From Blasia pusilla (Eukaryota), in assembly GCA_050084515.1 (NCBI GenBank), contig CM114271.1:26784001-26848000 (forward strand): a DNA stretch of 64,000 bases. Direction: 5' to 3'. The position numbers and the translations under genes are program-made. Under the pieces are notes generated by a model. That model was not told where the DNA came from. It made no database searches and saw nothing but the letters and a program-made list of their open reading frames with translations. Positions 394 through 58,163 of the stretch are shown in pieces (the first letter of the stretch is position 1; each line of letters opens with the position of its first letter).

Positions 394-611
394 GCTGTCG
401 TGCGCATACATATCGCTACACAACATATATCGTTGGTCATATCTACACCACACAACACCGATCTTTCCGACACACGGGTCAATCCACACATGTACAAAAA
501 TCAACTCATACATATACATGGAGATCACGCAACCGCCCCCCTAGCTGGCACTTGGATCCCCCCAACTCCAGATAGAAAATATCACATCCCTCTCTTACAT
601 GATCTACTACC

Positions 612-2137
612 CTATACACATCTCGGACACATCCATCGTCCCGTGGGAACCACATCAAGAGGGGGGGTCAGATATGACATATGCCACCCTCGAGAACAAC
701 CATCACATACCAACATGGTGGCTGCATCCCTTGCAGATCCGCACAACATACACCTCAAGCCTCTGCGGTACCACTATCAAGCTCGGATCCACCATCCCAT
801 CTACGTTCGGAAGATGACATGGCGCTCAATTCCGCACATGATCCTTCCAAACCATACCATCCCGTCCCATCCCTGACGCCAAGGATTCCTGCCGACTAAA
901 GCGATAACCCATAGCCAACCATGGCAATTGTAGGTCCTACTCCCTCAATTGTCCCCGTTGCAAGCCATGCTTGCGCAATCCTCTCTTCACCGTCTGTACC
1001 ACTCTCTCCGCCAACCCATCCGCCTCAGGATGATCTCAGGACGTGGTGTGGTGATCTATCAGCGCCTGATCACACAAGGCATGAAACTCTCCCCTGAACT
1101 CGGTACCCTGGTCAGTCAACACCTCCGTCGGTGCACCAAAGTGACTAAGCACACAATCTAGAAACGCATAAGCTGTTCCCTCGCTCGCCCTGTCTGGAAG
1201 TGCCACCAACTCTATCCACTTGGAGAAATGCTCCACCATAACCAACACATACCTATGATGACGCCCCGTCAATGGCAAAGGTCCCGCAAAGTCTAAACTC
1301 CACCGATAACCTAAACCCGTAATCGGCAAAGGATGTAACTGCGGAGTGGGAGCATTGAAGGATGCTCGCACTCTATCACATACCATACATCTAGCCACAA
1401 ACTGCTGTACCCCACTATGCATGTCGCGCCTCCAAGAGTGAACTGGAGTAAGTTGTAAGTACGCTTTACTCCAAAATGTTCCAACTCCTCATGGGCATGT
1501 CGCACTACACTTGCTCGCTGGGAAGGATGAGGTACCACTCGTATCCTATCATCTCCCCATACCCGCAAAATATAAGTCCCCTCCCACCTGAACCTCCTGG
1601 CTCTCTGAAGGATCCGATCCCGCTCTCTAGCACTCAATGTACTCACTATGACGCCAGTGCGCAAGAACTCCACAACCTCCACGTCGTCATGGATATCACG
1701 ATCACGTGTCGCCTCCTCACTAACCTCCGGATCCAAAGACTCATCATCCAACCCCACCACTGGAGTCGTCACCTGTGGCTGACCTGCCATAGTCAACCAA
1801 CAAAGTTAGGCAGATGCATGCCAATCAGGCATCGTCTCCTCATCACTCTCTCCGTGCCATCGAGCTCCTGTGTCGTCTCTCAGACTCGGACATGGGTTAC
1901 GACTCAACCCATCCGCATCCTGGTTCAGCCGACCTGGCCTATGAACCACCTCAAAGTCATACTCCTATAGTAATAGAGCTCACCTGGCAAGCTTTCTCGT
2001 AAGCTTGTCGGACTCCATCAACCTCCTCAACGGTTGATGATCAGTGATAAGTGTGAAAGGGTTGCCGAATAAATAGCACCTGAAATGTGCCACGGCCCAC
2101 ACTCTAGCCAAGCACTCTCCCTTGTAGGAGCTGTACT
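612..2137 (-). pseudogene. Decayed Gypsy pol: RNase H end, integrase, PHD finger
   Basis: ORF-track fragments 1980-2186, 1311-1796 and 1036-1422, plus manual translation of 752-612: CMLCGSARDAATMLVCDGCSRGWHMSYLTPPLDVVPTGRWMCPRCV*. Frameshifts present, and a deletion near 875. Confidence 0.9.
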
Positions 2138-2560
2138 TAAAAGGAAATAAATGCGGGAGGGGGAAGGGGGGGGGGGGCATCGCCATTCACCCGTCCACGC
2201 CCGCCGTCGTCCACTTGTCTGCGCTCGTGCGACCTAAACGCCTCCTGCTCTTTCCCAACACTCTCGCTACTCTTGACGATGCACTCGCCGCCCCACTCCG
2301 TACTACACTCTATCACTGTCCTCAATCCTTGTGCACCAGCAAACTCTGAGAAAAACGGACAGAGCTTCCGCCCACGGTCTTCGGAACAAAAAAATGACCA
2401 ACACCTACAACACACGCGTCTCCAGGGACTCCCGACCAAGGCAACTCGCTTGCCTACCTACAAGCAACAAATTCCCACCAGCCCCCTAGCATCTTTCTCA
2501 TGTAAAAATAAAGAGTAGTAAAGCCCCCTACATCGATATATCGAACATCGTCCACCCTTT

Positions 2561-10752: not shown

Positions 10753-10789
10753 GAGAATTTTGCCTGTAGCACACCCGTTGAGGAGCTCC

Positions 10790-30152: not shown

Positions 30153-33100
30153 GTCTCCATGCATCTCTTGTTCAACATTATGGGATAGCAATGAGAGAAA
30201 CAAATTGTAATATAAAATAGGGCATATCTCTAGGACCAACACAGGTAGATGACCCACATGTAGAGGTCACTGGAGGAACTAGGTGATTTTAGAACTAGAG
30301 TATTTACAACTAGATCCTATAGCATTAGTTTTACAACTAGAAATCCTAAGATTACTAACATGTAATTATCTAGTCGTATTATGTCACTAAGCATGAGACA
30401 TGATTTAAGCTTTATAATTAGTAATAAAGAATATTTAGAGTTAAATGATTTTATATTACATTTTATGAATTGGAATTGAAATTAACTAGATCTAGTCCTC
30501 TTAATTATATGTAGTTGATTTGTAATAATTAATAGGATATGATGTGTAAGAACTAAGAATAATGATGAATTGGTTAATATTTAATGAATAAGTATAAATA
30601 TTGCATGGAAATATAAGTACTAGTTGAAGTCATAAACTAAAAAAAAAAGACCCAAGTAGCATAGAGACCCAGGTGGCATACGCCACCTCGGTCTTCTCTT
30701 ATTTAAGAAAAAAAATAAAGCGGGAGTCGAATTTGCAAATAGACAAGTTTCAAAGAAGAAGTGACCACCCGATCAAACCCTACCCTCGAAATAGTTTTGT
30801 GGCATGCGCTCTTGTTACTGGTGATCATGTGCGGTTCTAGCGCTTAGGAAGATCCGACGTTGAGCATTTTGCATTGTGAAAAGTTGAAGGCTACGGCGCA
30901 ACCTAGACAGTTTTGGTCTCAAAGGAGTGTATACTCTTCATATGAGAGCTCCCATATGCGCATTCTACTGCTCCATTCCCATTTCCCTTGAAATCAATCA
31001 AAGGGCTCGAGATTCCTCAACTACGCTCTTGAGAGAAATACGGACGTTGCTACTCTCCTCTGCTTTCGGTAGCTCTAGTTGTTAAGTTATATTCACAGAA
31101 TCGAACTGTTGGAATGAAATGTCATGGAGCCTGTCGCGACACTCAATTAATGACTGCTTTGTTGCAAGTGAAGTTAAAGGTTCTCGTGATATTCATGTCT
31201 GTGCGTGTGTTTGCACGGAAGTGCTCAAGCTGATGTTCAAACAATGGGTGATGTTAGGGAGAAAATTTGCTTAGATATCTTCCATGTCCGTCTGTGAGCC
31301 TCTTCATCTCATAGAAAATTTGGTCGAAGCTTCTAACGAGCTCCCCGTGCTTTTGAGGATTATGTTGACTTTATCTCTATCGCAATGTATATGTCTATCT
31401 TACTCTCACTCGCTCGGTATGCAACGGACAAAAACTAGGATGTTCTAAAGTGATGCACCGTCATGGGAAGGAAGAGGGATCAATCAGAAAACTCTTCTAA
31501 TAGCAAACATCAATCTTCATCTCCGCGTCGCCTCATCCGCGCTTTCTACTTAACACTCATAGCATGGACAACAGCACAAAGAAGTTGGTATCGTAGGATT
31601 CCCACTGGTATCTCTAGCAACGGAAAATGAGCAATGATTGTTGCAATGTTTGGGGAATTGGGAGCTCCGTTGGTAAGGTGAAATTGATTTGAGAGTTTAC
31701 TTGTTGCAAGCGTGGGGGAAGATGCAATGCTTTATAGGTGAGTTGTGGATGAATGTGGTTTGATCATGAGATGGAGTGGGCAGCACAACAACAATAGCTT
31801 CCGATTGAGCTTGCGGGATACATCTGAGGACGTAATCCTCTGTTGATTTCACTTATAGCTCCAATTCGTTGATTCGAGACTGTCTCTCTTCAATTCGTTC
31901 CTGTTTCGAATTCAAGAAGCGGACCAACCTATTGAGTTCAAGTGAGAAGAAATTTCAAGGATCTAACATCATTTGTCATTTATCTTCACTACCGATATCT
32001 TCTACGGCAAGGATGTGAAAGAATTAGTGGAAGTAGCAGTTGGCCTTTCATGTGGTTAAACTAGCAACCACTACGACATGCCTACTATTACTCCTCACAA
32101 ATTAGGCCATTAGGTAGCAAGCAGTTTGCAAAATAGCAGCAAGCGCTTGAAACCTCCAAGAAGATCAAAAGTCCATACCTTTTCAAAGGTCCAATTGCTC
32201 ATTTTTTGTGACCTAATTGTTTAAGAAGGGAATTTTTCTTCCATAAACTTGCATCTGTCCTACACTCTTACCTACGAAGTCATCTTGCTTAGTCACATAT
32301 ATTGGTTCTTCATTATTAGGCCCTTCATCATGGTGTATTCAAGTGGAGTTGATTGAGCTCAACTCTCCTTACCTAGAAGAGTTTCCTCCATAGTTCTAAG
32401 TGAACAGGTGCCACATATTCCTTTTGTGTCTTTATTGGCCTTGCAAGCATACATACTATGCCTTGGACGGAAAATGATGGAGATTATAATGAGTGTAGAG
32501 AGAGTCATGCCCATACAAATCGCTACACAACATACATCGCTATCAACAAACATACACACAAACACGCACGATCGATGCTAACTCATGGCATCCAAACAAC
32601 GAGACAAGAAGTACCAAAATATCTCCAATAAATCAAGTAGATCTCTCTCCACACCATAGCTCTGTACACTCTCTCAATGTCAAACCAAACGCACTCCTAA
32701 TAAGAGGCTTGGGTTACACTCACAAGGCAAGGGACCAGAGGTTCAACAAAGAGAGAATGAGCTCTCAAGCTCTCTCTCCTTGAAGTATACCCCCTTTCCT
32801 CTCCCAAGCTCTGTCCTCGTTAACCTAGCTTGCACGTCACCTCCTTGGCTCTTGATTTGCTGTAGCGGGTCAAGGGCCACTTCCCAAAGTATAAGGTAAA
32901 CTCTATCCCTTACCCAAAATAGTAAGTTTCTCTATATGGCTCCAAATGAGCCGAAACGGAGGGAAAACTTGCTCTCACATGTTACTTGTGGCCTCAACAC
33001 GTCATCGTCTACCTCCTCAGGCTATCCTCTAGTATCCTCAAAGGCGCTCTACTAGATCTCGCCCATCTATCCTAAAAGTCATGACAACTGTCGTGTGCAT

Positions 33101-34003
33101 ACACATCGCTACACAACATACATCACTGTCAACATACATACACACAAACACGATCCCATGCTAACTCATGGCATCAAAAAAATGAGATAAAAAGTACCAA
33201 AATATCTCCCATCGCCCTCCTAGCTGGTGGTTAGGTCCCTCTAACTCCAGATAGCCATCTATCCCTACCTACCATGTCATACATCTCTCGGACGCTAGGA
33301 GCAAAAAGGCCGGGTGCTCATATGGCCCCATCGTTAGTCGCCTTATTGTCATCTTTTTCACAGACACAAGTCAGAATCTATAACTACCTACTCTATGTAC
33401 ATCAGGGACACATCCATTGTCCCTTAGGAATCCTAGTGAGAGGTGACATTAGACATGCCATATGACACCCTCTTGAACACCCATCACAGGCTAGCATAGT
33501 GGTTGCACCATTGGTGGAACCACACAACGTACATGGCAAGTCTGCAGGAACTACTGCTAAGATCGGATCAACTGTATCGTCAATGTTAGGAAGGTGACAT
33601 GACGCATAGTTACCGAAATGGTCATTCCAAACCATACCATCGCGTTCTCCAACAAGAGAACACCAGATGGCAAAATCTCACATACTCTCAAGATGGTACG
33701 CCGTACAGTCACATCCAATGTCATGGATGTCGTTTGCTGCAAGTAGACATAATCTTTGTGATGAAACCTCCGGATAGTAGGTCGATAACCACCTCATCGA
33801 ATAGTCGCATACCTTTACGTATCATGATGTTGCGCAATCGCCAAGTTCTCAAACGCCATGGGCATCACTCTCCAAAATAACTCAACCCTCTAAGAACATG
33901 CTCGCATCCATACATCAAGGTCATCAAGGTTCAACACCTCACCAACATCTCAACAAATGGCGGTAGGTAAATCAGACTCTCGGCCATAAAGCAGCAAGTA
34001 CGA

Positions 34004-34847
34004 TGTCTTGTCGAGAGCCTTTCTTCGAGTAAGGGCAGACCTTCTAGTTGCGATAGACGTGGTCGATGCAAGATGAACTCTCTAAGAAGTTCTCCTTTTT
34101 CAATACAAAATTATTATGTATACTCTCCATTCTCTCACGACAAGTATCACAAATGGAAGTGTCAAGGCGATCTCTTCTTCGTTACATCGAATCCCAAAAT
34201 TCCTAACTATAAAATCCCTATAAACTATTTTACGTTTGCACACGATGAAGATAGCACAACTAGTGTTAAACCCTGCGCCCATGGATCGCTATATAAGGAC
34301 ATACAAAGTACAATCCCATGTCCTTCTAGATGTGACGATAGGAAGAATCACCGGAGTTGGAGATTGTATGACCTGGTTCATGAACATCTCTCCAAAGTGA
34401 TAAACTAAATAGAAGGTCCTTCCTCTTTATATACTTACAAGGGATCCAGAAGAGTACGAAATAGAGCTAATCTTATCTTGTGCCACATGGCTTCCTCGCA
34501 AGGCTTAGCCAATCACAATTTGACACAAGTAGAGTTCCTCTTATCTCTTCCAAAATATCCTTTTTCATCCACTTGATATTTTCCAAATTACCCCAACTAA
34601 GCTAGCCACCAACCAAGACTACTTTTGCTTTTTATTAAAGCACCAACCTTGCTACTTTACTTTTATAAAGTCATCTTTTATTTATTACCTATTTTCCTAA
34701 AGTTGGGCCCGCATGAAAGAGACACCATAAAGAGGTTTAAATATGGGAATTTCCTTTTCCTAAGCTAATTTACTTAATACTAATAAAACTCTATCTAACA
34801 CTTAATGAGGAAGGAGTTTACACACTGGCTCATTTAAATGTATGACA
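34004..34847 (-). mobile_element. Solo LTR (family X) with 4-bp TSD ACGA
   Basis: TGTC...GACA termini; ACGA at 34000-34003 and 34848-34851. Removing the LTR and one TSD copy restores the integrase frame. Internally deleted relative to the 1280-bp LTR at 41624-42903. Confidence 0.9.
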
Positions 34848-35612
34848 ACGATGAGAAAGATGTTGAGGATGCTTGCCGACTAAATCTGTATCCCAACCAT
34901 GGCAACTGAAGTTCCCAGTCTCCTAGGTTACCTCTCTGCAAGCCATACTTGCATAATCCTCTCTTCACCATCTACAAAACACTCTCCGCTAGTCCATCCG
35001 CCTCATAAATGATCTCGCGAAATGGTGCGGTGTTCCATAAGTGCCTTATCACACAACGCTTGAAACTCCCTTCAAAACTTTGTACCGTGGTTTGTCAACA
35101 CCTGAGTTGGTGCGCCGCGAATGACTCATCACTCGATCTAGGAAGGCATACGCTACTCCCTCTCTTGCTTTGTCAGACAATGCAACCAACTCTATCCACA
35201 TTGAGAAATGCTCGACCATCACCAACACATAACGACTATGGCGCTCCGTCAAAGGCAAAGCTCCTCCAAAATCCAAACTGCATCTATAACCCTAACCCAT
35301 GATCGGAAGTGGATGCAACTGTGGAGTTGGAGCATTGAATGATGCTTGGACTCGATCACACACAATGCACGTGGCAACAAATTTTTGAACGTCAGTCTGC
35401 ATGCTTCGCCACCAATACTGTATCTAGAACAAGCCATACGTCCACTTCACCAAACTCCCGGTGAGCATGACACACCAAACATGCTCTCTGCGAAGGATGA
35501 GGCACAACACATACTTTACCATCCTCAATCCTAAACTTGCAACACATATGTCCCCTCCCACCGGAACCGTCTTGCTCACTGTAGGATGTGATTCTGCTCT
35601 CTAGCACCCACT

Positions 35613-38600
35613 TGTTGGATTCTCAACATCCACTTCTCTAAGCACCGTTAATCTGATCGGCCCCCTTGTATGAGGAGAAGCCTAGATTGATGGTTCCAAC
35701 TTAGACGTCGAAGGAGTCATAGTAATATGACGTAGGTGGTTTACGGAGTAGCGTTACTAGGTTTATCTAACCCTATATTGCGGGGGTCCGGAGTCGCAGC
35801 CCTTGGAAAAAAATTTCTATTAATAGAAACAAAGAAAAATAGGTAAAAACCCTAGTTTTCCCGAGTAGTCAAATAGTCGGGAGCCGCAGCAGTAGCGCAT
35901 TCTCGTATGTCGAGTTATCTCCTAGTTCAGGTTCCATCGAACCTCTTGTGTGAGCGCACAGACGGACTAGGCCACCTTGTATCTCTAAGTTTTGTAAAGA
36001 TTTCAGTGATTTCGTCACTTTCTGTTTTCTCACATGGTATCAGAGCAGTAGGTTTTCCAGTATTTTGTATCTGGCGATCTAGTGTGTTTGCACAAAATCT
36101 TGAGAGATGACTACTTCTTCGTCAGTTCATGCTCGCCCTCCACCGCTGGGTGAAGGGAAGTTAGATGGGTATAACTATACGTTGTGGAAGTTCAAAATGA
36201 GAACTGTTCTCGAATCATTTGAGATCTGGGAAACGGCCACAGGGGTCGATTCAAATCCACAAGCTAGTTTGAGTTATACATGTTCATCTTCATCTAGGGA
36301 TATCGATCATGCTGTATTGTTGGCATGGAGACGCAGAAACGCTGATGCTCTATATGCAATTGTCACAAATGTAACTGATTCTGTCATGACTGTCATTCAA
36401 CATACAACCACTGCTGCTGAGGCGTGGAACATTTTGAAAAATCAGTATGAAACGAGGAATGAGACTCGGATTGAATCGGAGAATCGCCTACGTCCAGAAA
36501 TTTTCAGAAGGAGAAAGCGCGGAGCCATTTTTTACAAGGATCAAGAATCTTCAAGATCAGATGGCCTCCGTAGGAATTTCAAAGTCTAGCAAAGATTTGG
36601 CACGTCGGTGCATAAGGATTTTTCCTCCAAGGTATGACAGTTTGGTCACTGCACTGAATACTCAAGTAAGACCCACGCCGCTTACTTTTGAATAATTTAG
36701 TGCAATGTTGGTAGAAGAGGAAATGCGCTTCAAAGCAAGACAGGGAAGTGATGCAGCATTTACTGCCAACATACAAAGAGGTAGAAATCAGGATTACATT
36801 TCAAATGTCAAGAAGAAATTTCCAAGAAAAGCCTTCAAATGCTTTTGATTGTGGTAAGCTAGGTCATCTTATCAAAGATTGTAGAAAGAGGAGTCAGGAT
36901 GAGAAGAACGATTGTTTAAGACCTAAGAAGGAGTCTTGAAATTCTGTAGAACTAGGAGAACATGAAGTAGATGCTTGGGTAGCAATAGAAGAGTTTTGCA
37001 CACAGGCAGAACATTCCACTAAGTCAAAGAGTGAAGATGCATGGGTGCTCGATAGTGGAGCATCTAGGCATATGACCAATCATAAGGATTGGTATAGCTC
37101 CTTACAGTCTCTACAGGAGCCCATCGTTGTTACTGTTGGGAATAATGCAAAGTGCCATGTAGAAGGGAAAGGCACAATTTCTTTAGTCTCACAAAAAGGC
37201 GATGAAAAGAAGTGAAATGATGTACTGTACGTACCAGAGTTGAAGCAAAATTTGATTTCAGTGCCAGTATTATGTGATCGTGACCTAGAAGTTCGTTTCA
37301 AGAAAAGTGGAGCACTCATCGAGAATGCCAATGGGAAAGTAGTGGGTGAAGGTGTACGATGTGGAAATATCTACGAGTTGTATGCTTTCACGACAAGTGT
37401 AGGTACATATCTTAGTAGCAGTAAGTTGTGGCATAAAAGATTTGGTCACCTAAGCTTTCCCTTACTAAGTCAGATGTAGAAATCTGACATGGTTGCTGAT
37501 TTACCAACAATTTCTGGAGTATCGGATACTTGTGAAGCTTGTATGATGGGCAAGCAACACCGACAACCATTTCCACAAGAGTCCAGCAATAGGGCAAAGG
37601 CTCCTCTAGAGTTGATACATGCTGACCTCTGTGGTAAAATGAGAACATTGGCATTAGGTGGTTCTTCCTACTTCTTTTTAGTAGTAAACGATTATAGTAG
37701 GAAGATGTGGGTATATTTCCTTCATGATAAGGCAAGTGCTTTTGGAAAATTTAAAGTATGGCACAAGCTGGTTGAGAATGAGACAGGAAAGAAGGTACAA
37801 AAGCTTCCCACCGATCGAGGAGGAGAATTCTTATCAACAAAATTCAACAAATATTTGGGGGAGCATGGAATCAAGCGACAGTTAACCACGGCACATACAC
37901 CACAACAAAATGGATTTTTTGAGCGTCAAAACCGTACAGTGGTGGAGATGGCAAGATGTATGATGAAAGAAAAAGGTTTGACAGAAGGATTTTGGGCTGA
38001 AGCTGGTAATACTGCTGTATACATTCTAAATAGAAGTGCTACCAAGTGAGTGCAAGGCATGACTCCTCATCAATCATACTCAGGTAAGGTACCATCAGTC
38101 CAAAATTTCAGGACTTTTGGTAGTGAGTGTTTTGTACATATTCCTGAAGTATCTAGGACCAAGCTTGAGTCCAAGAGTAGGAAGTGCATCTTTATGGGAT
38201 ACAGTGATGAGTCTAAAGCTTATCGCCTTTGGTGTCCTGAGGAAAAGAAGATGCTTGTGAGTCGTGATGTGGTGTTCCAGGAACAGCCTCGTCAAGTGGC
38301 GGATATCAGTGGTTCGTCCACATTATCATCAAACAAAGAGATAACACACCAAAGCACACCACAAATGTTTACACCAGATCATCAAGAAGAAGAATTTGGT
38401 GATGATTACAAAGAGCAACCTGCTCTTCTACTACGGTCATCATACCCTAAGTGGATAAAGCAACTCTTGGATAGTAAGGATCCACCAGCAACTGATGAAG
38501 TTGTTACACATTCAAGGAGATCCAAGAGACTAGAGGAGCAGAATAGAGCTTCCGCACATCTCATCAACATGGCCTTGATGACAGAGGTCTTGAAGGTGGA

Positions 38601-40598
38601 AGAGCCATCATGCTTGGATGAGGCCTTGGCTCATCCTCAATGGAGAGAGGCCATGCAGATGGAGATGGACGCTATTTAGAGAAATGAAACTTAGACTTTG
38701 GTTGAAAAGCCAAAGGACATGAAGATAATACGCACCAAGTGGGTGTACAAGACCAAGTACAAGTCGGACGGTACATTGGATAAATTCAAAGCGAGGTTGG
38801 TCGCACAAGGATGCTCACAAATCGAAGGTTTTGACTACTATGAGACTTTTGCTCCTAGTGCAAGGATGACAACCATTCGAATTGTTCTAGCGGTTGCAGG
38901 AAGAAGACGTTGGCCTGTATACCAATACGATGTGAAGTCTACCTTTCTGAACAAGAGTCTCAAGGAGGAGGTATATCTTTCTCAACCACCAGGTTTTGAG
39001 ATACCCGGATTAGAAGAGAAAGTTTGTTTACTTCATCGAGCATTGTATGGGTTGAAGCAAGTCCCAAGGGTATGGTATCAACGAATAGATACATTCTTTC
39101 GAGAGAAGGGTCTCATCAAGAGTTCGTCAGAAGCAAATTTGTATGTGTTTTGCAAAGATGGGATGTAAATGTTGATAGTCTTGTATGTGGATGATCTGAT
39201 CATCATAGGAGACCACAGTAAGAAAATAGAGGAAATGAAGGGAGTGTTGAAATCTGAGTTTGAAATGTCAAATTTAGGTCTTCTGCACTACTTTATAGGT
39301 CTGGAAATTTGGCAACAGTCAGATTCTATTTTTGTCGCTCAGCAGAAGTATGCTAGAGAAATCTTGAAGGCATTCGGGATGACCGAGTGTAAGGCAGTGG
39401 TCTCGCCAATGGAGGTAGAGTTGAAACTCTCGATGGAGGATGTTTCACCATTGATAGATGAAAAGTTGTACAGAAAGCTTGTAGGCAGTTTGATATTTTT
39501 TTGTAACACTAGACCAGACATTAGCTTCGCTGTGGGAGTGTTGAGTAGGTTCTCAACTAAGCCTCGTGAGAACCATTGGAAGGCACGGATGCGTGTGTTG
39601 AAGTACATCAAAGGCACTATTGAGTACGGCATCACCTATGGAGGAGGGACGGAAATGACAGGTTTTTGTGACTCGGATTGGGCAGGAGATTCACATTCTC
39701 GAAGATCGGTTTTGGGTTATTGCTTCTTGGTAGGATAAAGTGTGGTGTCATGGGTCAGCAAGAAGCAACCTACACTGGCTCTTTCTTGTACCGAGGTAGA
39801 GTACAAGGCGGCTTGTTATGCTTCTTGTGAAGCAGTATGGTTGAGATGGACATTGGAGGACATAGGAGAAGCACCATAAAGTGCTAATGTAATGTGGTGT
39901 GACAATCAGAGTTGCATTTCCATAACACATAATCATGTATTTCATGCTCGTATGAAGCACATAGATCCAGTATCACTTTGTTCGTGACTTGATCGAGAGA
40001 GAGGTTTTGAAGTTAGTCTACTGTCCAACAGAGGATAACCGTGCAGACATCTTCACGAAAGCTTTGAGGGGAGATCAGCTTCACCGACAACTGAAGGATC
40101 TTGGCATAGGTCCAAGACAGTAGTCCACATGAGAGTGGATATTGAGGGGGGGTGTTGAATTGTCAACATCCACTTCTCTAAGCAGCGTTAATATGATCCG
40201 CCCCCTTGTATGAGGAGAAGCCTAGATTGATGGTTCCGACTTAGACGTCAAAGGAGTCATAGTAATATGACGTAGATGGTTTACGAAGTAGCGTTATTAG
40301 GTTTATCTAACCCTATATTGCGGGGGTCCAGAGGCGCAGTCCCCGGAAAAAAATTTCTATTAATAGAAATGAAGAAAAATAGGTAAAAACCCTAGTTTTC
40401 CCGAATAGTCGGGAAAACTAGGGTTTTTACCTATTTTTCTTCGGGAGCCACAACGGTAGCGCATTCTTGTATGTCGAGTTATCTCCCAGTTCAGGTTCCA
40501 TCGAACTTGTTCTGTGAGCGCACGGACGGACTAGGCCACTTTGTATCTCTAAGTTTTGTAAAGATTTCAGTGATTTCCTCACTTTCTGTTTTCTCACA
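35613..40598 (+). mobile_element. Full-length Ty1/Copia LTR retrotransposon (inactivated)
   Basis: LTRs 35613-36034 and 40153-40598 (TG...CA); TSD CCACT at 35608-35612 and 40599-40603; PBS TGGTATCAGAGC (tRNA-iMet) at 36035-36046; poly-G PPT at ~40144-40152. Confidence 0.97.
36107..40122 (+). pseudogene. Copia gag-PR-INT-RT-RH polyprotein with stops and frameshifts
   Basis: KLDGYNYTLWKFKM (gag); CGKLGHLIKDC knuckle; WVLDSGASRHM protease (~37040-37075); LWHKRFGH; LELIHADLCG/TDRGGEF integrase; KARLVAQG and LYVDDL RT; FCDSDWAG RNase H. Confidence 0.95.
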
Positions 40599-41623
40599 CC
40601 ACTGTGTTCGCGATGCTGCTAGTACGTAGGTACTCCAAGACCACTCCATCGTCGTGAATATCTCGGCCACCTGTTATCTCCTCACCAGCCTCTAGATCTA
40701 AGGACTTTTCATAAGACCTCACCATCGAAGTCTTTGCAATCTGGCTGTCCATAGCCAATAAGCCCAAATAGATTCGCGCATGCCATCCTTGCATCAACTC
40801 CTCATCAGTCTCACCATGCCAACGAGATCCAATCACATCTCGCTGACTCGAGCATGGGTTACGGCTCAAACCATTTGCATTTTGATTGAGCATCCCAAGT
40901 CTATGCACCACGTGGAAGTCATACTTCTGCAACAAAAGAGCCCACCTCACAAGCTTCCTTGTAAGCTTATCAGGCTCCATCAACCACTTAAGTGGCTAAT
41001 AATCAGTAATAATGGTAAAGAGGTTGCCGAATAAATAACACCTCAAATGTGCGACAACCCACACTGCATCCAAGCACTCACCCTTATACGAGCTATACTT
41101 CGCCTCTCCAACGTTGTTCGAGCGACTAGCGTAAGCTACCACGAACTCTCTACCATCATTGTCATGTTGGATGAGCACGGCTCCAGGCGCCAATATGCTC
41201 CAATTGATATGCAACTAGAAAGGACGCCCCCTGATAAGTGTCCTTAATATGGGCGGGGGACGTTAATCTATCCTTGAGCAGCTAAAATGCTCTCTCCTGC
41301 TCATCCCCCCAATACCACTCCTAATCCATATTGGTGAGCAAGGTTAGCGGCTTCGCAATCGAAGTGAAACCCTTGACGTGTTTTCAATAGAAGTTTTCCA
41401 ATCCCATGAATGCACAAACTCCACTCCCATCTCTAGGGTCTGGAATGCGTGAAATAGCCTCTACCTTCACATGTTGCACACCAAGGCCCCCTCGATATAT
41501 CGTATGACCCATGTACTCAATTCGGTCGTAGAAGAACTTGCATTTGTCTGGAAGTAGCTTTAGCCCATGTAACTAAAATCCTCAAAACACCTCCTCTAGA
41601 TGTCGCTCATGCTCCTCAACCGT

Positions 41624-44131
41624 TGTCGTATAGTAAAATCAGCCAATGTGTAAACTCCTTCCTCGTTAAGTGTTAGATAGAGTTTTATTAGTATTAAGTA
41701 AATTAGCTTAGGAAAAGGAAATTCCCATGTTTAAACCTGTTTATGGTGCCTCTTTTATGTGGGCCCAACTTTAGGAAAAAAGGTAATAAATAAAAGATAA
41801 CTTTATAAAAGTAAAGTAGTGAGGTTGGTGCTTTAATGAAAAGCAAAAGTAAGCTTGGTTGGTGGCTAGGTTAGTTAGGGTAATTTGGAAAATATCAATT
41901 GGGTAAAAGAGGATATTTTGGAAGAGATAAGAGGAATTCTACTTGTGTCAAAATGTGATTGGCTAAGCTTTGAGAGGAAACCATGTGGCACAAGATAAGA
42001 TTAGCTCTATTTCGTACTTTTGTGGATCACTTGAGAGTATATAAAGAGGAAGGACCTTCAAGGGTTCATCACCTTCTATTCCACATCTTGAATCTCTCGT
42101 GTCACTCTTGAGTGTATGGCTTTGGGATTGCTTGCTCTTCCAATGAGAGTGGATCACCCCTCTTGGGAGAGTAACTTGACCATGGTCTATTCTCCGAGAG
42201 GTTTCTAGAGTGTGGTGTGTGTGTGGATATGAGAGGTTTGTCACCTTAGAGGAGTTTAGTCATACTAAAAAATAGTGAATGTTTTGGCTTGTTACTTTCC
42301 CAATGAGAGTGGATTACCCCTCTTGGGAGAATAACTCCGCTAAAACCCATTCTTGAGGATAGTAGAGAATGTCTGTCAAACATGGATAGGGATGGAGCAC
42401 GAGTTTTGTCCGACTTTCCTTTCCATAATTCATACGATGTCAAGACACTCTTTGTAGATAGGCACTAGTTCACTCGCTATATAGTTTATCACTTTGGGGA
42501 GGCGTTCATGAACCAGATCATTCAATCTCCAACTCCGGTGATCCTTGCTATCGTCACATATGGAAGGACATGGGATTATACTTTGTATATCCTTATATAG
42601 CAATCCATGGACATCAATAGGTCTGCTCAAGTAGGGTTTAACACTAGTTGTGCTATTTTCCTCGTGTACAAGCGTAAACTAGTTTATAAGGATTTTATAG
42701 TTAGGAATTTCGGCGTCCGATGTTACGAAGAAGTGATCACCTCGCCACTTCCATTTGTGATACTTGTCGTGAGTGAATGGAGAGTATACATAATAAATAT
42801 ATATTGAAAAAGAAGATCTTCTCAGAGAGTTCATCTTGCATCGACCACGTCTACCGTAGCTATAAGGCCTGCTCTTACTCGAAGAAAGGCTCTAGACACG
42901 ACAAATGGTGCTTCCATCGAGAGATCTTTTAGGCGATAGATTATGTTTGCAAGTTGGAGTCTTATCAAGATGACTACTTTTGGTAGTAGTTCATCAACCG
43001 AGGGAGGTGAGGATCTTCTCCGAACTTTGAGAACATTGTTGAGCCAACAAGGAGGAGTTCACATATTGGAGCAAAGATCAATAAGGGCTCTTCAAGCGAT
43101 TGTAAAGAAGTTGGGGAGATTTGATGGGAGGAACATCACCAAGTATGTTTGAGAGTACGTTTGTGAGATGGAGGTAAACCGTGTATCCGAAGGTGATATG
43201 GTGTCAAGTTTTGAGTTAGCTGTGATATCAGAGATTCATAGTCAAGTAAAGAAGTTGAGAGCAGAAAATCCAACCTCGAGGGAGGAGTATGAGCAGTTCC
43301 TAAAAAGAGAATTCTTTGATGATGATGTGGATCGGGTGACTAAGAGGAGTTTTTTAGAATGGATAGAGCAAGGTCTAGAGAAGGGAATGACTCCAAATGA
43401 ATTATTGTGTGAGTTTGAGAAGCGGTTTTTTCAGCTTTCTTCTTCCAAAATAGCAACTCTAGACTTGAGGAAAATTGAGTTATTCCTTGAGGCGGAATTG
43501 GAAGAAAGTGGAAGAAGTTGTTGCTATCCTTACAAAACAAAATCAAAGTAGAGGTAGAACCGCACTATTCAAGTCGGAGGTATCAATTTCAAATTCATTG
43601 CCTAAGCCTGTTTCAACAAAACTTGAAGATTGTGCTATAGATGAGTTGGTGAAAGGTTTGAGAGAATTGAGAGTAGAAATGGCTCAGCTTAAACTTGATA
43701 GGAATCCTAGTGTTGGTGCTCCTTCGACAAGTAGAAACTTTGTGAGAAGATGTATATGGTGTGATAGTATTGAGCATCAACGTCGAGAATGTGAGGAGTT
43801 TTTAGAAGCTCTTAGGAATGGAATAGTAAACTTCAAATATGGGAAGATTCATCCAACGCAGACTGGTATGCCGTTGAATACCAACTTTGGTAGAGGAGGA
43901 ATGATACGACACCACGTAGGTTTTTGGGTGCTATAGGCACTATAGAGTTATAAATTTTCATAGCGGAGTTTAGGAGTTGGTGTGACTTAAAGTGGGCTAG
44001 GAAGTCCAGAGAGTTCAACCTGTTTACATCATGGAACAAAATCTTCCAGCATTTAGAGAGGGCAAGGAGGATTACCATGAGTGTCATGGATAGAGCCGTT
44101 TCAAGATGAGAAGGAGGAGTTAGGAGAGGGT
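41624..44131 (+). mobile_element. Truncated Gypsy-like element of family X: 5' LTR, PBS-like site and decayed gag
   Basis: LTR TGTCGTA...CACGACA at 41624-42903; AA then TGGTGCTTCCATCGAGAG (PBS-like) at 42906; gag fragments GRFDGRNITKY and zinc knuckle CIWCDSIEHQRREC. Confidence 0.85.
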
Positions 44132-44286
44132 TGTCACATCTGAGTAGCCGATAGGCCGAGATCTATCGTGGATGGGGCGTAGGAGCCAGCGGACTATCTT
44201 GAGTGTAACTTTTTCTGACGGTTTTGGATGAGGTTGAGGATAGGTCCATTGTGTCAGGAACGTCGTTTCTGAAAACTTTCCTGTTG
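44132..44286 (+). repeat. Truncated start of repeat A (element A subfamily), opposite orientation
   Basis: TGTCACATCTGAGTAGCCGATAGGCCGAGATCTATCGTGGAT matches the reverse complement of ~2800-2953. Confidence 0.9.
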
Positions 44287-44365
44287 GAAAGTAAGTGGGG
44301 TGATTTGAAGCATGATGTTGCCAAATTTGCTGGCTGAATTGCTTGTGTAGAAGATCAACATCGGT

Positions 44366-47300
44366 TGTCATTCCACTAGTCTAAAATCCATCTTACTATG
44401 AATCCTAAAATCTCTACACATGAATGAATGGACAACCCCAATTTCCCCCCTAACCGGTGGTTTGGTCCCTTTAACTCTAGATAGCCTACAAAAAAAATCT
44501 AAATGCTATGCATCTTTCCAGTGCTAAGATCAGGAGGTTGGGTGTTATGTCTCCCTATCGTAAGTCACCTTCCTCCAATCCATTACATCAAGAGTCATCT
44601 TGTAATATACCTATCACACCTATATACGTCTAAGACAAAGCCAACGTCAATGAGGATTCAAGTCAAGAGGCGGTGTCAAACAAGACATTTGCCATCCTCT
44701 ATATCTGGTCATCCCAAACCAAGCAAGGTCCGGCCTCCTTGAATGTATAGGAAGCGAGAAAACTCACCAATGTCGGAAAGGCTGCCCCTGGCATGCCAAT
44801 TCTGTCGACCATAGTCAATGGCGGTCAATCATGTAGCCTCACTCCTTGTGATCGACAGCCTGGATCCAATATAGAATCCACCAATAAATTAGGGGAGCAA
44901 TCCACTCTCGCATATGCCCTCCGTAATACCTCGTATGGTACCGAGGAGGTCCACCAAAGACGCGGCCGATGTGCTCGTGAACCCACAATAGCCGCATCCA
45001 ACAAAACTGCCAGGCGAATCCATGTGCCCACTTGATATACACTTCTCACCATACGGGACCTCGAATCGCACAAAATCGGTACATTCTCCAGAATCTATGC
45101 TGGAGGACGAGACAGATGCTCCTACAAGTGTCGCAAGATCCACATCATCTTCCAAAACAACCTGGACCGAGAGTCAACTAATCCGCTATCCCGTTCAGCA
45201 TTCGACTGGCCCTAACATGACTCACCAACAATGACCAAGTCTATGGTCCCTACCCACTCCAAGTTCTACGCCCCCAACAATGAAATGTCCCTCGATAGGA
45301 AACTCTGGTAAGCCTGAATGGCAGACGTAGACAGCAAGTCAAGAAAAGAGAGGCGTAAGTGCACCACATGGTGAAGTGAAGCGCGCATTGCAACATCATC
45401 AATCTCCACATCCAGGTACTGCTGCACGCGCACTCCAGCCTGCAAAACAACAGCTTACCCAGTGTTGATCCCTCCAAAGAGATCCAACAATCGAATACCC
45501 TTCTCTGGGATGCACCACACAATCAAGGTAATGTCCAAAGGGGCCATAGCATCACTCCTGGCTATCTGGGGTTCCTCTGACCCGTCACACTATGGTACAA
45601 ACGTCTTGCTCCATGTGGTGTGCAGAGGCTTAGTGGCTAAGCGTTGAAGCTCCTTAATCGAGCCCCAAAGCGACACCTCTCCTTCATGGACTAATGCGAC
45701 TACCATGACACTTCTCTCCATAGAAATGTAAGCAACGAGATTATCCTGTGCATGGACATGTCCTTCAATCAAATCACTAGGCCAAGTGATGGCATTGCTA
45801 AATGCTGCAAAGGTCGCCATCTTTCCTCGCCGTCGCTTTATCACTGCACATGTGAATCAAACGGATAATGAGCTAAGGCGCCCATCACCTAACTGCCATC
45901 CTGGTTTGTAGGACGCTAACTTCTCCCAGTAATCCAAGGAATATCCCATCGGATTTAACACTGCTCCACCAACCAAGACCTGGTAGGACTTTGCATTAGT
46001 CATTATCGCCTTGGCTCACACCACCGACTCATCTGTAAGATGTCCCGGGCGAATCCTCCCCACAACCTATCGGGTGATATACTATGTGCTACTTGCTCCA
46101 CCCAAAGATATATGTATCCAGAATGGACAATGCTCCACATCGGCTCTTGTCAAGCCCAATCCTCTTAATGACGCTTTCCCCAACATCAGGGGTTGCGCTC
46201 TTGAATCCAACAAGACGCGCTGCGGACTAAAAGCTCTACCTCCAGAACTCACCAAATAGAAGACCTCTCCCCGGTTATCCAGCAACATAACACCAGGAGA
46301 AGCCATGGCACGCTCTATCGCGAGTCTAGCGGGCATTTCGGCCATCATAGCAGCCTTAATTTGCCATGAATCTGACGTGGACGGCCCGAGCATCCATTCC
46401 AGGTCCATCACCTCCTCTGCAATCACCTTTGAACGTGATGCAGGAACTCCAACTCCGCGCTCACATAGCATAGCGACCAGCCGGAAAACCTTGACGTGCG
46501 TACCTCCCGACGTCATAACATCGGAAGTACTAAACACTGGAGCATGGTACACCATCATGGCCGCCCCCAACATCGTACTCAACACATGCTCCTCCTAAGC
46601 ATCAACAATAGGAGTCATCGTAGTCGCTTCTCCCATCGCCCTTTGTGCCTGCACACCAATAACATCACCAACTCTCCGCGAACTCTAATCATGATCCATC
46701 GATGGGGTCCTCATCGCCTCAGACAACGTGAAAGATTGAGGAAGCCTGGTATGTTTCCTGGCTTCCCCTCGTTGTGGATCCAACTCAACGGCTGCTCCAT
46801 GTGTCACAACTATGGCGGCCTCTATTTGGGCAACCCTGCTCATTCAACCAGGATCCTCCGTATCTCTCGCTGATCCATATGATGTCGATGCCATGGATCT
46901 AGCATCGGATAACCTCAATGTGATAGCAACAATCTGCTTCTGTAGCTGTTGTATCTCAGCAGCCATTCCAGCCTCACGCCTAGCATCTCCTTCCACGCAT
47001 CTAGGTGGTGGGACTCTACCTCCTCCACGGGCAGCTCCACCACCGTGTCGGGCAACTTCAGCTCCTCGTCCCCCAACGGGACCACCAGGTGCACGATCTC
47101 TAGGCTCACTTGAATCGGCTATTTGCTTTGGTGCCCTCTCTGGCCCTCGGTCTGGATTTAAATCAAGGTGTAAATTGAAACACATGGCGCGTGTGTGACC
47201 CTACCTCTGACAATAGACACACTGATAACCTCCTGGTGCAACACCATCTCCTCCATGCTCAGGCACACGTCCATAACCCTGACAAGTGCAATCACGTTGA

Positions 47301-50300
47301 TGATGGGCTCCACCACATGACCAACAAGTAATTGTAGGCGGCTACTACTAAACTCCATATGAAAGCGTAGGTCTCTATAGCACGGCCTCTTGGTATCCTC
47401 CTTGAGATTGTGATGCCATAGTCAACCTATCTTGGAGTCCACGTTGCTACACTAGTGGTGCAGACAATCGTGAATACTCTCGCCGAGAACCCATGGTGGG
47501 TACGGTCTCCTCCGCCATCTTGCGCTCAATGTTCTCGGCGGTCCTTAAAACATCTCTCAACGTAGGGGAGATGTTCAAATGAAGCATCCCCTCCCACACA
47601 CGTGTCCGCATGGTCTGGTCCAACATCGCGTACCATGACTTGATAGCCTGAGCCTGTGTCAACCCTTGAGTGACGTTGATCAACCGACGCAAGCGAGTGT
47701 AAACCTCATGCAAACTCTCACTCGGGCGCCTTTGGAAGTCATGGATGCTCTACAACTTCTCCGTCCGTACCCCTTGGTAGCTCGCCCTCAACTCAACGAA
47801 GAACTCAACCACGGGGTTAAACCAAGGACAAACTCGGCTAGACGGTGCAACTGCTCTAGTGTGAGTGACCCCTCCTAAAACATCACTAGTGGAAGAGGAA
47901 GTAGCCTCTCATGACTCCTCCTCCTTATCTGGGAATGGCTGCGTCCATGACACATAGTGTGGGTCATAGTAGAGTCGCCATGCCTCAATCTCTAGGGCAT
48001 ATATGTGGGAGAACTCATGGTAATCGTCCATGGGTGCCCCCTCTCAATTCTAGAACATACCGTTCCATGCTATAAATGGATTGAACTCTCCAGAATTCTT
48101 AGCCTGTTGTGAGTCACACTAACTTCTAAACTCCGCAATGAACTCGTGTAGCTCTAGAGTGCCTATAACATCCGAAAACCTACTCGATCCTCTACCCCGG
48201 TCGTCCATCTCGTACGCCCAATTGGTAGGACCACTTGATGTGTACGGTGAATCACTAACACATTCCTCTACATACTCCCCCTTGTCTGAAGATGACATAG
48301 AAGGAGATCAAGGTGGTCTTTCAAGTGGAGACCCTCAAAACCTCGCACCACTCCGGATAAACCCTTCAGAGCTACTCTCAATTCCACTACCTGGCCTCTT
48401 AAAATCCCGAAAGGACGCCATGATAGCCCTCGTGCCTCTCCCACACGATCACTCTCAATCTTGCAAGTTATCCCTCAATCACTAAACCCAAATGTGCGTC
48501 ACTCAATCTGCACTCTCTCACTGAGACGTGTGTTGTGCGGCAACAAGCGGTGCGGTCCGGAAAATCAACTGATCTATCGTCTCATCGACAAACCATCCTC
48601 AACTCACGACATCCCACATAGGTCTATATCCCCTAAACCCATACATCATCGATGCTCTTAGCATCAACACAAAACCCAATATCCTAAATAACTTCCCAAT
48701 ACCCCGAAATCCCTCCCACATGTTGGGTAAGAGATCAGAATGGGTAACATGACAATAATATCAATATCGCTCCTCGGAAATTATAAATCTCGACCCCAAC
48801 TTGGTCGTGAAGACAACTCCAATCAACAACTTGTACTCCTCTCCTATTGACATTGCTCAAACCTCCTCGATGTGCGGTGCAGATCCAACCGTCCAATGCG
48901 GCACTGGCGGCACGGAACGGCTACAAACAGCACGGCACTCGAGAATGGGGAGCGGAACTCTGCGGCATACCCTCCTCAATCAGAAATTCACACACTCTGC
49001 TCCTTAGTGAAGGAGCGGCTCCGCGATCGAGAGGGTGCGGTGCGGCCACAAGCGGCACGGGGTGACAATCGATGGCGCATTGCGGCTACGCGCGTCACGG
49101 CACGGTACTCGATTGTCGTCAAGCGGCTACCAATCACAACCTAGCGACGTGAAATGAAAACTCAAACACCATAACCCGAGGTCACGTGCCATCATTAGTT
49201 GATGACAAAACTATGATGATGATGGCCGCCAAAATAAAGTATGTGATGGCGGCGCAAGTGAGACAATCAACAGTCGACGTGGAAGACCCTCCACTCCGTA
49301 ATGGCGGCAATGGCAACCAAGGGTGGACAAAGGCCGAACGCAGCTCTAAACACCGCTAGGCGGCGGCGGCAGCCAACGATGGACGATGGACAGTGTATCA
49401 TTGACAATGATGGTGGACCATTAATGGTGACGTTTGATCATCGATGGCGGACCGTTGATGGTAAGTATAACGGCGCAACGGTTGATTTAGGGTTTGAATA
49501 ATTTAACCCTAAAAATCACCTAGCAATGGCATTTTTGCAAGATTGACCATAAATTTTTGCTCGAAACTCCAAATTGCACACTTTTTTTGTACATCGTGCA
49601 TAGATTCACGATCTACGACGGCGTCAAAAAATATTTTAAATCGGACATTCCTTTAAAAATTGAAGGGGACTGTTGTAAAGCCCAACGTCTATTTCTCCTT
49701 TTTTAAAAATTTGGCGGCGCTTCCACGCTGATTTCTCCCAACAAAAATGTAAAACATATGAGAACGAAAATAAGAAAGCTATGTGGTGCTCTTGAGAGCA
49801 CCGACATGGAGTAATCCGCCCCCATACTCAATTCCTATAAAAAATTAGGCAGTGCTTCCGCGTGCCACTCTCCCGTACAAAAAATCAGCAAAGCAAAGCA
49901 GCAAACTCGCACGGCTCTTGCTATGCTGAGCACTCCCACGAGCCATGAAGCGGGGAACAATGTCCCCCAACCTGCACCAAACATTGAGCAACCAGCGAGC
50001 TCCCCCATGAAGTTCTCTCACTCACTTATTCTCTCTTTGTAAAATAAGATCCAACCTCTTTCACTCACTCATTCTCTCGTTGTAAATCAAGATCCAATCT
50101 CTCTCAACACCATAGCTCTCAAATGTGTGCACTGTCACATGTCTCTCTCAATATCAAACCAAACTTTCTCTCATACTGAGAGGTTTGGGTTACACACACT
50201 AGGCAAGCAAGACCATAACTTCGCCGTCTCATGCCAAGAGGTTCAACAAAGAGAGAATGAGCTCTCAAGCTCCCTCTCCTTGAGGTATACCCTTCCCCTC

Positions 50301-50397
50301 CCCCAAGCTCTCTCCATGGTTACCTATGCTCCCAAGTCACCTCCTTGGCTCTTGACCTGATGAAGGAGGTCAAGAATCACTTACCAAAAATAGAAAG
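44366..50397 (-). mobile_element. Ty3/Gypsy-like retroelement copy C: repeat A, long leader, gag, protease, DNA methyltransferase, deletion, PHD tail, 3' UTR
   Basis: Repeat A homologue at 50083-50397 (matches 32629-32900). gag at 47447-47713; knuckle CVYCQR*GHTRAMC at ~47221-47180; protease VLLDSRAQPLMLG at ~46220-46180; C5-MTase motifs at 45500-44950; PHD remnant RGWQMSCLTPPL..RWLCLRRI* at 44700-44620. The 3' UTR is homologous to copy B, and the terminus reads ...ATGACA at 44366. Whether the whole span is one element is not certain. Confidence 0.82.
44710..45500 (-). pseudogene. Retrotransposon-encoded DNMT3-like cytosine-C5 methyltransferase domain (single frame, several stops, C-terminus deleted)
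   Basis: Manual translation: GIRLLDLFGGINTG*AVVLQAGVRVQQYLDVEIDDVA...RDISLLGA*NLEWVGTIDLVIVGESC*GQS...GLVDSRSRLFW...ILENVP...VLLDAAIVGSRAHRPRLWWTS. This gives motifs I, II, III, IV, V, VI and VIII in canonical order. Confidence 0.9.
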
Positions 50398-50713
50398 TCG
50401 ACCATAGCATAGGTAGTTCTATATTCCGACTTGTGTCTGTGACATGGATGATAAGAAGGCAACTAACGATGGGGCCACATGAGCACCCGACATTCTTACT
50501 CTTAGCGTGTGAGAGATGTATGTCATGGTAGGTAGGGATAGATGGCTATCTAGAGTTAAAATATCTCCAATCGCCTAGGGGGGCGATTGGAGATATTTTG
50601 GTATTTCTTGTCTCGTTGTTTGGATGCCATGAGTTAGCATGGGATCGTGCGTGTTTGTGTGTGTATTCGATGACAACGATGTATGTTGTGTAGCGATGTG
50701 TATGCGCAGGACA
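50398..50713 (+). mobile_element. Inverted 3' UTR plus repeat B fragment of the DNMT/PHD family (copy D)
   Basis: Reverse complement of ~33089-33395; ends ...GCGCAGGACA at 50713 and abuts CACTA coding sequence. Confidence 0.85.

Positions 50714-58040: not shown

Positions 58041-58163
<123 letters not shown>

Follow-up and report, generated by a model that had tools for sequence, protein, structure and literature searches.

Hosts hold transposons in check chiefly by methylating cytosines, and a de novo methyltransferase carried by a transposon reverses this usual picture. Do such elements exist in a land plant? The question is raised by a 64,000-nt stretch of the liverwort Blasia pusilla (NCBI GenBank assembly GCA_050084515.1, contig CM114271.1, positions 26,784,001 to 26,848,000 of the forward strand), called the window below and numbered from its first letter. 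In its minus strand an initial annotation, made from the sequence alone, had placed a DNMT3-like cytosine methyltransferase (DNMT) inside a Gypsy polyprotein. Read on the minus strand, the DNA between 50388 and 32504 is a copy of a liverwort retrotransposon of the Ty3/Gypsy type, and this copy is old and dead. Collinearity with relatives and Pfam searches of the window give the coding order gag–protease (PR)–DNMT–reverse transcriptase (RT)–RNase H (RH)–integrase (INT)–PHD, as the initial annotation had it, and relatives are built alike. The cases described so far, in the accessible literature, come from dinoflagellates and one charophyte, with few copies and a Gypsy-borne enzyme that was without activity in yeast.

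The methyltransferase domain

Translation of 45700–44500 with the stops read through gives C5-methyltransferase motifs on the minus strand, all in one frame: motif I, LDLFGGI, at 45487–45467, then YLDVEID, GLVDSRSRLFW and LDAAIVGSRAHRPRLWWT. Motif IV reads DLVIVGESC*G, with its Cys codon at 45217–45215, and motif VI reads ILENV, with ENV at 45088–80. All the motif strings quoted in the initial annotation, which had them in one frame without a frameshift, are thus found where it put them. For Pfam and phmmer searches the 300-aa (amino acid) domain query was written with stops as X. The decayed copy matches the PF00145 (DNA_methylase) profile with an E-value of 5.9e-6 and 26.4 bits (curated cutoff 22), the outcome of the profile search that the annotation had proposed as a check. 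Its span for the domain (44710–45500) was right in location and too short: in the alignment with relatives, the EPNADERERAMGF block and motif X have heavily decayed counterparts farther on, with no change of frame, down to ~44560. We considered a shift of frame of the C-terminus near 44690 and rejected it, as the alignment fits the unchanged frame with heavy decay. Residues 9–1142 of the Marchantia protein Mp_4g09160 match 48193–44711 in a single collinear tblastn alignment (41% identity, no frameshift). There is one DNMT domain copy in the window.

Motifs I, VI and VIII are recognisable in the window copy, and motif IV is mutated to SC*. In the alignment SC* occupies the position of PCQ in intact relatives, which fits two C>T changes (S from P, and the stop from Q), as had been supposed. 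The catalytic motifs of relatives from Marchantia, Calypogeia, Sphagnum and metagenome records are intact (FGG, GWPCQG, ILENV, GSRAHRxRxWWTN, PTLVS, EPNADERERAMGF and LGQAMD), and their PF00145 scores are 31–46 bits. In an alignment of 17 sequences, G104, W105, Q108, E150, D180, H189, R190, R192 and W195 are invariant and C107 is kept in at least 90%, at a mean column identity of 25%; such near-invariance of catalytic residues argues for selection on catalysis.

Comparisons by single sequence, by family profile and by fold all place this domain nearest to DNMT3, the class named in the initial annotation. Among solved structures phmmer matched 30 distinct sequences at E<=1: 29 belong to DNMT3A, DNMT3B or DNMT3C (best 2.3e-8, query positions 7–192), and the remaining one is a plant DRM-type enzyme (E 0.59). 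For a profile built from 17 family members the best matches are DNMT3A (3.6e-24, 88.7 bits), DNMT3C (1.1e-21) and DNMT3B (2.6e-21), followed by NtDRM (2.3e-13, 53.1 bits), DRM2 (3.8e-10) and M.HaeIII (2.2e-9, 40.0 bits), and more weakly still M.HhaI (5e-9) and DNMT2 (2.8e-3, 19.9 bits). DNMT1 is absent among the 56 matches listed for this profile. The match to DNMT3A (2qrv_A) is made of three collinear blocks (motif I; motifs IV–VIII; motifs IX–X), and therefore the domain lacks the rearrangement typical of DRM. When the Marchantia domain was modelled with AlphaFold (pLDDT 92.1, pTM 0.91), the Foldseek matches listed were DNMT3A, DNMT3B and DNMT3C only (E about 2e-19), with target-normalised template modelling (TM) scores of 0.75–0.81 for isolated catalytic-domain chains and lower scores for longer chains. 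The ESM Atlas search returned only 'DNA methylase, Streptophyta'. A DNMT3-like domain is supported by these comparisons with solved structures.

With cellular DNMT3A, DNMT3B and DNMT3C the family shares the collinear order of motifs I–X and a catalytic loop of the PCQ/PCN type. It differs in that identity in fold alignments is 20–23%, the domain is fused to Gag and protease, motif X reads LGQAMD, and no PWWP, ADD or plant DNMT3 N-terminal domain was recognised by Pfam in the window or in relatives. The plant de novo methyltransferases DRM2 and NtDRM, themselves derived from DNMT3, are the second-best solved relatives (2.3e-13 to 4e-10), but their motifs are circularly rearranged, and only positions 89–223 of the family profile align, to the C-terminal part of DRM.

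The copy in the window is dead, as the initial annotation concluded. What inactivated it are 30 in-frame stops, ~3 kb of foreign DNA that took the place of the DNMT–RT linker and the N-terminal half of RT, and a Copia element nested in it. Eleven of the stops lie in the 340 codons of the DNMT frame (45520–44501) and 19 in the 891 codons of gag–PR; 21 are TAG, eight TGA and one TAA. We compared the copy with host DNA reads at sites where it differs from at least one fifth of them. The copy carries T at 143 places where the reads have C, and A at 124 places where they have G; the reverse changes number 40 and 39. Deamination of methylated cytosines would be expected to leave such a pattern, which also fits the surplus of TAG stops. 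Where the copy has its TAA stop (codon 22), 594 out of 610 first-mate-on-plus DNA reads have a Leu codon, as do all 48, 47 and 41 first-mate-on-plus RNA reads of three runs; at other sites the majority letters of the reads restore residues present in Marchantia. At 44692, 564 DNA reads of other copies continue with sequence unlike the window, and mark the point where the family and the window copy part. The observed/expected ratio of CpG is not distinctive (0.67–0.69 in the element, 0.61 in the window).

Relatives, repeats and a conserved stop

The domain recurs in other bryophytes and in green algae. A search with the window domain found 14 longer proteins, 10 of them hypothetical proteins of Marchantia polymorpha and one from Calypogeia fissa (43–56% identity). 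An intact Marchantia domain found 72 proteins, including 15 Marchantia models and proteins of Calypogeia, Sphagnum fallax (50%), Chlamydomonas eustigma, Haematococcus and Monoraphidium, and the representative protein library gave 812 matches at E<=1e-3 (287 at <=1e-10). We recorded the domain order of 239 proteins. In 49 the DNMT either follows PR or precedes RT (the order being DNMT-RT-RH-INT-PHD in two of them and PR-DNMT-RT-RH-INT in three), in 103 the order is RT-RH-DNMT-INT(-PHD), 86 have the DNMT alone and one is INT-PHD. A protein labelled as from a Spirochaetia metagenome-assembled genome (P0360) has a short match to the DNMT query besides INT-PHD; in all likelihood its contig is a eukaryotic retroelement that was binned with a bacterium.

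The RT-RH-DNMT-INT-PHD order is a second architecture, seen for example in P0011, P0017 (a Scenedesmus 'pol'), P0330, P0335 and P0350 (Chlamydomonas eustigma); the C. eustigma version adds an SH3 domain and a chromodomain. Related elements therefore have the DNMT module at two different places. The two arrangements also part in a midpoint-rooted FastTree phylogeny of 185 DNMT domains (retroelement-type matches only, with domains shorter than 230 or longer than 420 residues left out). All 95 RT-RH-DNMT-INT(-PHD) sequences fall into one clade (support 0.89), and 42 of the 44 PR-DNMT or DNMT-RT sequences fall into a clade free of the other arrangement (support 0.82). The window domain groups with copies from Marchantia and Calypogeia in a clade of 18 tips (support 0.992).

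Longer relatives were fetched from metagenome records with the family alignment. It gave 469 pattern matches, of which 346 could be confirmed, and we kept the best 80 loci. They show the same order, gag-PR-DNMT-RT-RH-INT-PHD, and in 51 of the 80 the DNMT is followed by RT. Eleven of these 51 loci share a stop codon at a distance of exactly 271 nt behind the DNMT match; its context is GTTTTTGC(A/G) TA(G/A) CAACCCATG. Three more loci have one at an analogous place: GCA TAG CAACCA at +313 in L018, and TAG CAGTTA at +364 in L031 and L032. The RT frame equals the frame before the stop in 12 of these 14 loci, which are the relatives nearest to the liverwort copies. For example, L031 has an open gag-PR-DNMT frame of 1,369 aa, one TAG, and an open RT-RH-INT-PHD frame of 1,047 aa. 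Five distant loci are without any stop, and P0042 is likewise one continuous frame. Marchantia models (P0168, P0307 and P0308) and further proteins end in homologous C-termini, which explain the 35 'PR-DNMT' models of the census. The conserved stop was sought in the window and is absent, because the DNMT–RT stretch has been deleted there. A stop that is conserved in place while its identity varies (TAG or TAA), followed by CAA or CAG, suggests stop-codon readthrough, Gag-PR-DNMT being ORF1 with the methyltransferase at its end. Leaky stops of plant viruses have a similar context.

The relatives also clarify the ends of the element. In L039 two direct repeats flank the coding region in a split arrangement: A1 (1676–2017) and A2 (10350–10691) are 92% identical, and B1 (10238–10350) and B2 (10693–10805) 94%. 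The layout is A-coding-B-A-B, with which L060 and L005 agree as far as each reaches. The repeats of the window fit it: they are split (A1...B1-A2-B2), and are not two identical direct long terminal repeats (LTRs) flanking the coding region. The low identities of A1/A2 (75%) and B1/B2 (85%) indicate an old insertion, and at neither candidate end did we recognise a target-site duplication. A reading of the ends as terminal inverted repeats was dropped, as the relatives have a clean A-coding-B-A-B layout without the inverted block found beside A1 in the window.

The family is abundant in the host. We mapped host reads on 44501–48200 at a likeness of at least 85%, the DNA sample being about 1% of a whole-genome shotgun run. 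Of 33,020 DNA reads only 38 are at least 99% alike, and summed depth is ~450–2,260 over the gag/PR bins and 200–1,140 over the DNMT bins. On the assumption that those 38 reads stem from the window copy itself, the family would roughly amount to hundreds of copy-equivalents. Three RNA runs contributed 838, 681 and 1,062 reads. Their first mate lies on the plus strand in nearly every case, which under the usual convention of stranded libraries would mean element-sense RNA; RNA depth reaches 36–41 at 45369–45492, inside the DNMT. Only 0, 0 and 1 of these RNA reads are at least 99% alike to the window copy, and therefore other copies, not this one, are transcribed.

Known systems, a proposed cycle and its rivals

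Gypsy elements with a DNMT3 were published in 2018 for the charophyte Klebsormidium nitens (de Mendoza et al., PMC5890265). Likened through that published description, the window element is by its architecture of the same kind as KnitGypsy-Dnmt3: both are integrase-bearing Gypsy elements whose coding region includes a non-rearranged DNMT3-type domain, with DIRS-like A-coding-B-A-B repeats and a streptophyte host. The figure legends of PMC5890265 describe the A-coding-B-A-B layout for SymbioDIRS-Dnmt3 and call the repeat structure of the Klebsormidium Gypsy-Dnmt3 'the same' as that of DIRS. The differences are that K. nitens has few copies, whereas the liverwort family is high-copy and its host an embryophyte (with relatives in Marchantia, Calypogeia and Sphagnum), and that neither the conserved stop nor the PHD finger is described for KnitGypsy-Dnmt3 in the accessible text of PMC5890265, where the term 'PHD' has zero occurrences. 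SymbioDIRS-Dnmt3 of Symbiodinium likewise has a DNMT3-type domain in a polyprotein and A-coding-B-A-B repeats, and its DNMT is reported to carry out de novo CG methylation in yeast; but it is of the DIRS type and has a tyrosine recombinase in place of an rve integrase, its host is unrelated, and the authors regard the acquisition as independent.

Two further groups are comparable. The green-algal Gypsy elements (e.g. Scenedesmus sp. PABB004 KAF8056149.1 and Chlamydomonas eustigma CEUSTIGMA_g8544) have a homologous DNMT (33–36% identity to the window, 34–42% to Marchantia) and the same RT, RH, INT and PHD, but the DNMT lies between RNase H and integrase and belongs to the separate clade; we met no paper describing them, no search having been aimed at them. 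EpiLTRs/DAM-LTRs (10.64898/2026.05.21.726589) are LTR retrotransposons with DNA methyltransferases and chromatin readers, but the available text describes other enzymes, namely adenine methyltransferases and a cytosine enzyme related to DNMT4, accompanied by chromodomains.

What is new here is thus the host group: a known kind of element in land plants, which are experimentally tractable. We found no description of Gypsy-DNMT3 in liverworts, mosses or other land plants in the literature, supplements and subscription papers being outside the scope of the search, and six Marchantia gene identifiers of the family are unmentioned in the literature searched. Later papers, in their accessible text, cite Gypsy-DNMT3 as prior work on 'streptophytes' and add no hosts (PMC12344493; 10.64898/2026.05.21.726589), and the literature found to cite the 2018 study and mention Marchantia does so, in the text available, only about N4-methylcytosine (4mC). 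About 15 Marchantia models with the DNMT domain are already public as hypothetical proteins. For annotators, these 'DNA methylase' models are retroelement open reading frames (ORFs). The conserved stop after the DNMT and the combination of A-coding-B-A-B repeats with an rve integrase are further oddities of the family.

Our best overall explanation, in which we have good confidence, is that the window holds a dead copy of an abundant, transcribed liverwort Gypsy-DNMT3 family, for which we propose a cycle of readthrough and methylation. In live copies Gag-PR-DNMT would be the main product, and the full polyprotein would arise by occasional readthrough of the stop, so that the particle would hold methyltransferase in Gag-like amounts. 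There the enzyme may methylate the new cDNA or the DNA of the integration site, as the initial annotation had proposed, and the new copy would enter the genome already marked, while the PHD finger of the integrase would read histone tails and steer integration. For a DIRS-borne DNMT3, methylation of new cDNA or of the insertion site has been proposed before (de Mendoza et al. 2018, PMC5890265). We hold the steps of readthrough product, particle-borne DNMT, methylation of cDNA or target and PHD-steered integration tentatively when they are taken jointly, at somewhat less than even chances. The still more specific picture of a live bryophyte lineage, Marchantia included, with DIRS-like repeats, a Gag-protease-DNMT3 extended by readthrough, methylation of its own cDNA or landing site and PHD-guided integration is rather unlikely to hold in full.

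Several points weigh against this explanation. The term DNMT3-like expresses a comparison with solved structures only, and DNA-methylating activity is a prediction from sequence. According to the accessible text of PMC5890265, the Klebsormidium DNMT domain gave no methylation in yeast, a result that its authors do not take as decisive since human DNMT3B failed there too; it is the single published assay of a Gypsy-borne domain. For readthrough the evidence is the conserved stop with its surroundings. Silenced or read-through transcription could be the source of the RNA reads, and the family's presence in the host is known from reads and from broken copies. An open frame of at least 900 aa occurs in only five of the 80 fetched loci, and most copies are decayed. 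No Klebsormidium protein is among the named matches of the domain searches, and the kinship with KnitGypsy-Dnmt3 is one of architecture. Finally, the inverted block at 50403–50713 is unaccounted for by the A-coding-B-A-B layout; a leftover from another copy is one possibility, a feature peculiar to this family another.

Among the rival explanations, the one that survives best concerns origin: the bryophyte family may have got its DNMT3 independently of KnitGypsy-Dnmt3. We regard such convergence as possible, if the less probable reading. The want of a Klebsormidium match among named proteins is in its favour, as are the green-algal relatives, which have the DNMT elsewhere and form a separate clade of 95 (support 0.89); the differing place and the separate clade imply that the module was moved or captured more than once. 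Both elements, however, combine A-coding-B-A-B repeats with an integrase-type element (legends of PMC5890265), both hosts are streptophytes, and the Klebsormidium absence is weak evidence, since length windows and shared words restricted what the searches could return.

Slightly less probable, and in our view doubtful, is that the methyltransferase methylates no DNA in the life cycle of the element and serves as a structural or regulatory module, as DNMT3L does for DNMT3A, or acts on RNA. DNMT3L-type inactive paralogues lose catalytic residues. In the present family these residues are kept across distant members, at the low mean column identity given above, which goes against such a role. The published assays, as far as the accessible text of PMC5890265 reports them, cut both ways: the Klebsormidium domain gave no DNA methylation in yeast, but SymbioDIRS-Dnmt3 domains methylate CG there. 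The discussion of that paper also raises RNA methylation for a LINE-borne DNMT.

Two remaining explanations have little standing beside a Gypsy-DNMT3 family. That the Marchantia and host copies are cellular genes of retroelement origin, a domesticated family, would agree with their annotation as protein-coding in Marchantia and with the presence of RNA reads, but is very improbable given hundreds of copy-equivalents at 85–95% likeness, terminal repeats, and heavy decay in most copies. Least credible of all, and refuted by the evidence at hand, is a one-off capture, in which a fragment of a host DNMT3 gene landed by chance in one Gypsy copy (the condition that the initial annotation had named as refuting its reading): the window does hold a single DNMT copy, and the second related copy at 389–2138 has only RH-INT-PHD, but gag-PR-DNMT-RT order is found in the Marchantia models, in Calypogeia and in full-length metagenome relatives, the DNMT stretch is present 200–1,140-fold in host DNA reads, and the window domain nests among retroelement copies in the tree.

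If the proposed cycle is true, a parasite-encoded de novo methyltransferase contributes to land-plant methylomes, and the expression strategy would be new for retroelements. The family is abundant and transcribed in a liverwort, and it has relatives in Sphagnum and in Marchantia polymorpha, which is tractable and has mapped methylomes; what a retroelement gains from a DNMT3 thereby becomes testable in a land plant.

Other features of the window

The features of the element and of its surroundings are collected in the table. Pfam recognised neither gag nor protease in the window, and both were assigned by collinearity with relatives; the protease string VLLDSRAQP aligns with VLLDTGAQP of relatives that bear PF13650 (Asp_protease_2). 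For the relatives' residues from the DNMT to mid-RT there is no counterpart in the window.

Table. Features of the Gypsy-DNMT copy and associated repeats (window coordinates; L and P numbers denote relative loci and proteins)
Feature	Position	Strand	Evidence and remarks
Block inverted relative to 33089-33397 (pre-B1 + B1)	50403..50713		83% over 313 nt; no L039 counterpart
5' repeat A1, split direct repeat	50143..50388	-	direct match to 32669-32888, 75% over 247 nt; same place in relative L039
gag, two CCHC zinc knuckles (CWSCGGAHHQRDC; CVYCQR*GHTRAMC, ~47320-47180)	46400..48193	-	collinear with Mp_4g09160 (P0168) from residue 9
Aspartic protease	45600..46400	-	active-site triplet D-S-R at 46207-46199; RVLLDSRAQPLMLG aligns with RVLLDTGAQPVMLG of P0312, P0320
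DNMT3-like C5 cytosine methyltransferase domain, motifs I to X	44560..45520	-	11 in-frame stops
Foreign DNA, ~3 kb	41640..44710		in place of DNMT-RT linker and N-terminal half of RT
Inverted piece of the DNMT family's own gag start	43916-44082	+	76% match to 48013-48183
Gag-like ORFs in foreign DNA, two overlapping, one CX2CX4HX4C knuckle	43153-43936	+	no Pfam match
RT, C-terminal end	41336..41638	-	RVT_1 positions 159-205, E 1.4e-5, 25.4 bits (below cutoff 29.6); tblastn P0170 873-973, 55%
RNase H, Ty3/Gypsy type	40600..41259	-	PF17917 RT_RNaseH, E 1.3e-26, 93.2 bits
Nested Copia-type LTR retrotransposon, between RH and INT	35613..40598	+	LTRs 35613-36034 and 40153-40598, 93%
Integrase, zinc-binding domain and core start	34870..35474	-	Integrase_H2C2 (35474-35121), E 4.5e-7, 30.3 bits; rve weak, 0.01; tblastn P0178, P0042, 48-53%
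Integrase ORF C-terminal extension with terminal PHD finger (33533-33399)	33399..34033	-	PF00628 PHD, E 7.9e-11, 42.3 bits, cutoff 24; collinear with P0011, P0178
Repeat B1	33090..33212	-	direct match to 32504-32629, 85% over 126 nt
Repeat A2	32669..32888	-	direct match to A1
Repeat B2, probable 3' element end	32504..32629	-	B-A-B order as in L039, L060
Second related copy, 5'-truncated, RH-INT-PHD-B	389..2138	-	~72% identical to copy 1

The two gag-like ORFs within the foreign DNA are probably part of another retroelement. The inverted piece of the family's own gag start has parallels in L028, L029 and L034: there a 468-nt inverted gag piece (92%) comes after RNase H, and in the window the inverted piece comes after the DNMT. 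Such recurrent inverted self-duplications of gag may be by-products of replication.

The nested Copia-type element is younger than the Gypsy-DNMT copy that it splits. Its rve match (37480–38049) precedes its RVT_2 match (38695–39168), and it has long open frames. About 840 bp of extra DNA at 34033–34870, separating the integrase core from the C-terminal extension, are probably a small inserted repeat; 115 nt of it are 83% identical to 30030–30144.

The window itself places its host among the liverworts, by a nuclear GatB gene with introns (for subunit B of glutamyl-tRNA(Gln) amidotransferase) at 10751–13730 on the plus strand, with exons at ~11084–11527 and 12851–13730. In the first conserved exon (11084–11527) identity amounts to 91% with Riccia fluitans, 89% with Calypogeia fissa and 87% with Physcomitrium, with ferns and seed plants lower and a best match of 93%, in agreement with the land-plant host that had been assumed.

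On the 5' side of the element, and abutting it, are open frames of a CACTA/En-Spm-type transposase (50694–51990, plus strand; DUF4218 E 4e-22, DUF4216 E 8e-5). Farther on, a long CT/GA dinucleotide run at ~57950–58150 (plus strand) reads as (SL)n in an open frame.

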